From Escherichia virus TH47, in sequence record MT446416.1: DNA of 64,000 bases; one strand, 5' to 3'. The position numbers were made by a program, and so were the translations under genes. Shown piece by piece: positions 3,941 through 4,427 of this stretch (positions are counted from its first letter, which is position 1; each line of letters starts with the position of its first letter). The notes under the pieces are model-generated. The model saw only the letters and a list, made by a program, of their open reading frames with translations. It did not search any database and was not told the DNA's origin.

Positions 3941-4105
3941 TCATCGGTGCACGATATGCATCAGTACTTCTTCGTCGAGTTCAGTACTTAAATATGCTTT
4001 GTACACGCACTTGATACGTATAACATCCCACATTCTAGAATCTAATGGTAGATAATAAGGATTCCACTTTAATTTTTGGCGTTTCATCCACTCTTCATGT
4101 GTCAT
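3941..4105 (-). CDS. small hypothetical protein, MTHEEWM paralog (54 aa)
   Basis: Hand-translated ORF below track cutoff: MTHEEWMKRQKLKWNPYY...; start overlaps upstream stop as ATGA. Confidence 0.45.
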   Translation of the reverse strand: MTHEEWMKRQKLKWNPYYLPLDSRMWDVIRIKCVYKAYLSTELDEEVLMHIVHR

Positions 4106-4266
4106 ATTCGTACCAGTAGTTCAATTAAGTACATTTCATATGCTGGATCGTTGATAAGTTTATCATACAGATGTGACTCTGAAATGAATTCCCAATGATA
4201 TTTTCGCCATTTACCAAAACCTGCATATCTAAAATTAATGTCATTCATCCATTCTTCATGTGTCAT
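4102..4266 (-). CDS. small hypothetical protein, MTHEEWM paralog (54 aa)
   Basis: MTHEEWMNDINFRYAGFGKWRKYHWEF...LLVRI; ATGA overlap with both neighbours. Confidence 0.45.
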   Translation of the reverse strand: MTHEEWMNDINFRYAGFGKWRKYHWEFISESHLYDKLINDPAYEMYLIELLVRI

Positions 4267-4427
4267 AATCGTACCATTATTTCAATAAAGAACCACGGAT
4301 ATACTTCATGGTTTATAAGTTTATCGTATTCTGCTGGGTCTGATATAATTTCCCAATGATATTTTCGCCAACTACCTATACCCGAATATCTAACATTAAT
4401 GTCATCCATCCATTCTTCATGTGTCAT
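4263..4427 (-). CDS. small hypothetical protein, MTHEEWM paralog (54 aa)
   Basis: MTHEEWMDDINVRYSGIGSWRKYHWEI...IMVRL; near-identical 5' nucleotide sequence to the two downstream copies. Confidence 0.45.
   Translation of the reverse strand: MTHEEWMDDINVRYSGIGSWRKYHWEIISDPAEYDKLINHEVYPWFFIEIMVRL

Follow-up and report, generated by a model that had tools for sequence, protein, structure and literature searches.

Tandem arrays of a lineage-restricted family of small proteins beside tRNA genes in Asteriusvirus jumbo coliphages

Clusters of small early host-takeover genes, such as the host-takeover module of Bacillus phage SPO1 and the hyperplastic regions of T4, are composed mostly of unrelated genes. 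Gene accordions arising under host-defence pressure, such as poxvirus K3L and the segmental amplification of T4 against toxIN, consist of recent, near-identical and reversible copies. Here we describe a family of genes for proteins of about 55 residues in Escherichia virus TH47, analysed in a stretch of 64,000 nucleotides (nt) of its DNA (sequence record MT446416.1, hereafter the window), in which three consecutive genes, A1, A2 and B, form a head-to-tail array and two further members, F and C, form a second sub-array. With the SPO1 and T4 clusters this array shares a dense same-strand run of very small genes behind strong host-type promoters (in the window, promoter-like sites), a place in a variable region and a large virulent phage as carrier; it differs in that its genes are paralogs of one family, and in that the early timing established for those clusters is here a proposal. 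With accordions it shares tandem copy-number change via repeat recombination that is polymorphic among close relatives, but its copies are old, diverged and individually conserved.

That jumbo phages of the 121Q type enlarge their genomes by tandem duplication was proposed earlier (PMC5646251; PMC7247149). The jumbo-phage tandem arrays of Hua et al. grew in the same way as the array of the window, an existing gene having been duplicated head to tail, and they belong to the same phage lineage. Whereas the former consist of very similar genes, the 54-residue genes studied here are strongly diverged (19–64% identity), and their array, unlike that of Hua et al., reaches a large size only in an uncultured relative, being small in Asteriusvirus. 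By megablast, the region falls among the jumbo coliphages of Asteriusvirus, such as 121Q, PBECO4, phAPEC6 and Sharanji, at 90–94% identity over about half of the query, and no record in the database searched was identical to it. The five genes of the window are the same as 121Q genes 125, 126, 127, 118 and 114 (PBECO4 gp386, gp387, gp391 and gp393), with 65–93% protein identity, and in 121Q they stand in the same order with the same 165-nt lengths and ATGA overlaps. Paralogs D (121Q gene 121) and E (PBECO4 gp392) are missing from the window phage, which carries two HNH endonuclease genes between its two sub-arrays. The genes themselves are already known, being present in GenBank and in PHROGs; new here are the coding evidence, the connection of PHROG 10970 with PHROG 31562, the mosaics ascribed to recombination and the array of 20-plus copies in an uncultured relative. 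We found no paper that discusses the family, and the papers on Sharanji, fEgEco12 and phAPEC6 make no mention of these genes, paralogs or transcription data.

Layout and membership of the array

Open reading frames (ORFs) were called in six frames with a cut-off of 25 amino acids (aa). The five members are listed with their 121Q orthologs, their PHROG matches and, for four of them, the ratio of nonsynonymous to synonymous divergence among orthologs (pN/pS).

4263–4427, minus strand: copy A1, 54 aa, heads the triplet; ortholog of 121Q gene 125; phrog_10970, E 1.9e-26; pN/pS 0.22
4102–4266, minus strand: copy A2, 54 aa; ortholog of 121Q gene 126; PHROG 10970, E 1e-24; pN/pS 0.27
3941–4105, minus strand: copy B, 54 aa; ortholog of 121Q gene 127; PHROG 10970, E 8.2e-26; pN/pS 0.33
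6830–7006, minus strand: copy C, 58 aa, begins MTHKEWL; ortholog of 121Q gene 118; phrog_10970, E 2.7e-29; pN/pS 0.27
7003–7188, minus strand: copy F, 61 aa, MQPKTFDEWF...YFSIAVMD; ortholog of 121Q gene 114; PHROG 31562

All long ORFs of the window lie on the minus strand, and the triplet is read in the order A1, A2, B, at 165 nt per gene. A repeat finder returned head-to-tail units with a period of 161 nt, the 165-nt genes overlapping by 4 nt. The stop/start overlaps have the sequence ATGA (A1/A2 at 4266–4263, A2/B at 4105–4102, F/C at 7006–7003) and are also kept in relatives; an AAGG ribosome-binding motif belonging to A1 lies at 4437–4440. A sequence-only reading of the window had described three consecutive minus-strand ORFs of 54 aa that begin with MTHEEWM and are linked by ATGA, with a diverged fourth copy that begins with MTHKEWL, and both the ORF calling and the sequence bear this out. 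The W-R/K-K-Y-H-W core that it ascribed to all three ORFs is found, as WRKYHW, only in A1 and A2, with LDSRMW at that place in B, and the near-identity that it saw between their 5′ ends holds for the first ~21 nt but not beyond. This 21-nt block is 95–100% identical among A1, A2 and B and is matched at 76% by C. The degenerate pattern ATGACNCAYRARGARTGG for MTH(E/K)EW occurs 4 times in the window vs 0.00 expected (100 shuffles). Alignment of the four copies identifies them as paralogs, A1 and A2 sharing 79% nucleotide and 64% protein identity, while B and C share ~25% protein identity with A1/A2 (nucleotide identity of B ~40%, ungapped).

A1, A2, B and C match PHROG 10970 over its full length (profile positions 1–55/56), and F likewise matches PHROG 31562 (E 6.1e-41, positions 1–59/61); both PHROGs are listed as function unknown. 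An iterative hidden Markov model (HMM) of the family recruited F at iteration 2, which brings the members in the window to five, arranged as the sub-arrays F-C and A1-A2-B. Aligned end to end with the family profile by hhalign, F scored a probability of 85.7% and an E value of 5.4e-6 over 55 aligned columns. By these profile comparisons, F is a remote member of the same superfamily as the PHROG 10970 copies. Searches of Pfam and NCBIfam gave no match for family members, and an all-against-all BLAST of the 64 kb revealed just one further paralog family, that of three HNH endonucleases.

Coding evidence, age and recombination

Orthologs were compared in 13 genomes, comprising 12 related genomes and the window. 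In every one of them A1, A2 and B have a length of exactly 165 nt, with no indels, and at a synonymous divergence (pS) of 0.11–0.23 the four PHROG 10970 copies show the pN/pS values of 0.22–0.33 listed above. When the family profile was searched against 1.84 billion representative proteins, only 22 matches were returned, 20 of which are 43–64 residues long, the other two being partial matches to proteins of >1,000 aa. The short matches retain M1, T2, H3, W6 and the C-terminal Arg (R53) even at 20–35% identity, M1, H3, W6 and R53 being invariant. In copy C the codon of His3 is CAC instead of CAT, and the residue is kept. The ORFs are annotated as coding sequences for hypothetical proteins in every GenBank relative inspected, and an Rfam scan of positions 2400–8200 returned transfer RNAs (tRNAs) only, with no Rfam family in the array. 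On comparative grounds, the low pN/pS, the constant length and a protein profile that recovers distant, motif-keeping members thus show the ORFs to be genuine protein-coding genes. For annotation, this means that these ORFs below 60 aa are confirmed as real genes, that a fifth member is added and that two PHROGs are joined in one superfamily.

The A1-A2-B triplet recurs, with the same 165-nt lengths and ATGA overlaps, in 121Q, vB_Ec-M-J, Ecwhy_1, Sharanji, phAPEC6 and the divergent Turkey5; CMSTMSU also has it, with a B copy that has no start codon (L008, 1373–1525). Two-copy arrays consist of A1+B in PBECO4, slurp01 and A4, and of A2+B, behind the upstream flank of A1, in ELP-22 and JP4. At the 31 sites that discriminate A1 from A2, A1 groups with A1 and A2 with A2 across genomes, and some copies are mosaic: that of SD-15_S21 combines an A1-like body with an A2-type 3′ end, A2 of the window has an A1-type patch at sites 61/65 (WRKYHW, not WLKYHW), and the reciprocal patch is found in A1 of Sharanji. 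Compared within genomes, A1 and A2 show 0–2 differences in the first 54 nt (6 in the window) vs 27–32 in the next 108 nt (Fisher p 1e-4 to 1e-6; 0.03 for the window), the paralogs differing at 25–30% of nucleotides in the 3′ two-thirds. In this 3′ part, pN between A1 and A2 is ~0.25 and pS is 0.3–0.5, a ratio well above the 0.2–0.3 seen between orthologs, which indicates that the C-terminal two-thirds of the two proteins have probably diverged in function.

Because the triplet is orthologous across the genus and its copies are diverged (64% protein identity for A1/A2, ~25% for B and C), the duplication behind it is not recent. The polymorphism between two and three copies, the mosaics and the contrast between the 5′ and 3′ parts point to unequal crossing-over, with loss of 161-nt units, and gene conversion, and they fit an old array with a 161-nt period that would have been changed by both processes. 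Further paralog types lie near the same tRNA cluster, namely D in 121Q, E in PBECO4 and some odd ones in Turkey5. Gain and loss of paralogs also change the set, which numbers seven in phAPEC6 (F, E, C, D, A1, A2 and B) and five in the window, and every paralog shows presence/absence polymorphism among relatives. Degenerate copies were also observed: a 20-residue MTHEEWLVQTEH remnant is annotated as 121Q gene 115 (L002, 4110–4172), and a B copy with a replaced C-terminus is found in a metagenome contig (L021, 632–796).

Two simpler accounts of the repeats have to be set against an old coding array. If the repeats were non-coding DNA, that is, regulatory or structural repeats or an RNA element with accidental ORFs, the small size of the ORFs (54 aa), the failure to match Pfam or NCBIfam and the presence of plus-strand mirror ORFs of equal length (e.g. 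4195–4359) would be readily understood. Such an account is at odds with the ortholog pN/pS, the strict length of the genes, the distant members found by the protein profile, the CAC codon of copy C and the CDS (coding sequence) annotation in relatives, and an RNA element is rejected by the Rfam result; we took the mirror ORFs as artefacts of the repeat and consider this explanation extremely improbable. The sequence-only reading had named non-coding behaviour of the repeats in related genomes as part of what would speak against it, and there the orthologs are under purifying selection. The same reading saw in the triplet a recent duplication of a small accessory gene, of which the tandem paralogy stands, all four copies belonging to PHROG 10970 and varying in number, and the recency does not. 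A recent triplication in this phage under acute selection, as in a gene accordion, would account for the head-to-tail layout with its 161-nt period, the near-identical 5′ ends and the copy-number polymorphism, but an accordion would be expected to leave near-identical, genome-specific copies. Here A1 and A2 agree at 79% of nucleotides and B at ~40%, the triplet is found genus-wide, Turkey5 included, and the diagnostic sites sort by copy and not by genome, making such an event very unlikely. The family is a compact case of birth-and-death and concerted evolution of tiny jumbo-phage genes, with 2 to >20 copies at one syntenic locus.

Distribution and possible function

Among 50,697 phage records, 35–36 encode the family, all of them Asteriusvirus. 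A scan of 185,579 species-representative genomes of bacteria and archaea (GTDB) gave no member, 121Q itself was the sole match in an IMG/VR scan, a scan of JGI (Joint Genome Institute) metagenomes returned three Asteriusvirus-like contigs, and no member turned up in the syntenic region near the tRNA genes of RaK2 (Alcyoneusvirus). These scans show the family to be lineage-restricted, confined as far as the searched records reach to Asteriusvirus jumbo coliphages and a few uncultured relatives. One such relative is represented by the 78-kb Logan contig L014 (ERR4503900 contig 124), to which two family proteins map. Positions 6001–10713 of this contig hold 26 back-to-back genes for proteins of 50–66 aa over 4.7 kb, at a spacing of mostly -4 to +2 nt; an iterative HMM search assigns 20 of the 26 to the superfamily, the median identity between pairs of these being 19%, and contigs L015 and L016 carry similar arrays. 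After the L014 array come four tRNA genes and a gene with a T5orf172 domain; before it stands a 276-aa gene that has a homolog at 11001–11831 in the window (121Q gene 102). The shared 276-aa gene and the tRNAs therefore place the array at a locus syntenic with that of the window. The phage itself is uncultured and related to RaK2 and Asteriusvirus.

The members are predicted to be all-helical and are aromatic-rich, at ~55 residues: AlphaFold returned a small four-helix bundle (predicted local distance difference test score 72–73, predicted template modelling score 0.42), tryptophan makes up 3.9% of family residues vs 1.0% in the long ORFs of the window, His and Tyr/Phe are also enriched, and most members are acidic to neutral. 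No matching solved or viral fold was found for the model in PDB or BFVD. Two structural ideas were dropped. Metal binding by the N-terminal M-T-H, in the manner of an amino-terminal copper- and nickel-binding (ATCUN) motif, was abandoned because the wider superfamily has K, Y, F or R in place of His3, and a transmembrane C-terminus was abandoned on finding that the hydrophobic stretch spans just 8–10 residues and includes a charged residue.

As it stands, this is an uncharacterised ORFan family of a common kind. On the basis of its lineage restriction, its hypervariable location, the polymorphism of its paralogs, the conserved scaffold with a diverging remainder and a possible early promoter context, we tentatively propose that the proteins may be non-structural accessory proteins, possibly early, that bind host or host-defence proteins, although the assignment is on balance somewhat doubtful. 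In this proposal the MTHxEW N-terminal helix and the hydrophobic C-terminal helix would form the scaffold, and the fast-diverging middle and C-terminal part would set the target of each paralog. The published virion proteome of phAPEC6 (PMC7247149, Table 1) does not list the orthologs gp094c-096c and gp099c-101c, which is compatible with a non-structural role. A bolder and less likely version, which we regard as speculative, is that of a diversifying arsenal, in which a ~55-residue scaffold would have been duplicated again and again in this jumbo-phage lineage (to 20 or more tandem copies in an uncultured relative) and have diverged, each paralog would neutralise a different target in host immunity or housekeeping, and the set would be continually reshuffled by unequal crossing-over. 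If this were true, the family would be a new anti-defence or host-takeover family with an unusual array-based mode of evolution, and if the proteins are inhibitors of host factors or defences, the arrays supply a panel of natural variants on one scaffold.

Other functions can be imagined for proteins of this size and position. Small DNA-binding regulators with a helix-turn-helix-like fold, acting on phage or host transcription and not on host proteins, are an unlikely alternative in our estimate. A role tied to the neighbouring phage tRNAs, in protecting or maturing them or in inhibiting host anticodon nucleases, would explain directly why the array keeps its position beside tRNA genes, which it adjoins on the same strand in the window, 121Q, slurp01 and the distant contigs L014 and L015, and co-transcription with them is suggested by the promoter-like site upstream of the tRNAs. 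Such adjacency may, however, merely reflect a shared hypervariable region that also gathers homing endonucleases; RaK2 has a tRNA cluster and no family member was found in that region, no RNA-binding family was matched, and we judge a tRNA-linked function quite unlikely. A coding five-member family in an old, recombining array, perhaps acting as an accessory binder of host or defence proteins, is the explanation that we favour for the whole and hold to be rather probable. Several observations weigh against it. Absence from a virion list obtained by mass spectrometry is weak evidence, as 6-kDa proteins are easily missed, and the moderately confident structure model, lacking a fold match, leaves a binding role without independent support. 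The identical 5′ third of A1 and A2, which offers only ~10 synonymous sites, may reflect purifying selection on the N-terminal 18 residues and not gene conversion. Lastly, the promoter scan returned 30 sites vs 35 expected in shuffled sequence, so that only the quality and the strand bias of the best sites are suggestive.

The tRNA region around the arrays

The family genes sit in a hypervariable region, made up of tRNA genes and homing endonucleases. The first 5.1 kb of the window contain four tRNA genes, and the features next to the triplet are as follows.

1–73: tRNA-Thr
1368–1441: tRNA-Asn
2632–2721: tRNA-Ser(gct)
3903–3930, minus strand: promoter-like site TTGACT-16-TATAAT, directly after B and ahead of the gene at 3515–3871; consensus match only
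4466–4990, minus strand: HNH gene (NUMOD4 + HNH_3) for a 174-aa homing endonuclease, between tRNA-Arg and A1; not a family member
5024–5097, minus strand: tRNA-Arg(tct), upstream of the triplet on the same strand
5107–5134, minus strand: promoter-like site GGGACA-16-TATAAT with an upstream TG, preceding tRNA-Arg, the HNH gene and the triplet; consensus match only

In relatives the distance from tRNA-Arg to A1 is 24 nt, and the HNH gene at 4466–4990 is absent from that position in 121Q, slurp01 and Sharanji. The GGGACA-16-TATAAT element also stands ahead of tRNA-Ser/tRNA-Arg and A1 in slurp01, where the TTGACT-16-TATAAT site after B is conserved as well; we infer that the latter marks the start of the next unit, the gene at 3515–3871. 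The best sigma-70-like sites in 2500–8300 all lie on the coding strand. Thus, the tRNA gene or genes and A1-A2-B may form one unit, expressed from a sigma-70-type promoter upstream of the tRNAs, in which A1 would be started from its own AAGG, and A2 and B (and C after F) would be translated by termination-reinitiation at ATGA; the HNH gene at 4466–4990 would have been inserted between tRNA and A1 in this phage.

Genes for tRNA-Met, tRNA-Ser(tga), tRNA-Leu and tRNA-Gly are absent from the window and present at matching positions in 121Q or slurp01, and the tRNA set is therefore variable within the genus. The tRNA region of the window contains three paralogous NUMOD4/HNH_3 homing-endonuclease genes (1450–2154, 4466–4990 and 5713–6687, minus strand), and HNH genes occupy the sites held in 121Q and slurp01 by tRNA-Gly, tRNA-Ser, tRNA-Leu and paralog D. 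In the 324-aa HNH protein, an N-terminal HNH module appears to have been fused to a second module, of the NUMOD4-HNH type, that is a homolog of the 174-aa protein. Five promoter matches reach 11–12 of 12 consensus positions, all on the minus strand (5641–5614, 5501–5473, 3930–3903, 3518–3490 and 2756–2728), that at 5501–5473 falling within the ORF at 5392–5583. A 30-nt direct repeat, 80% identical between its copies at 5107–5136 and 6786–6815, resembles an extended -10 promoter on the minus strand; the two copies precede, respectively, tRNA-Arg with an HNH gene and the second HNH gene.
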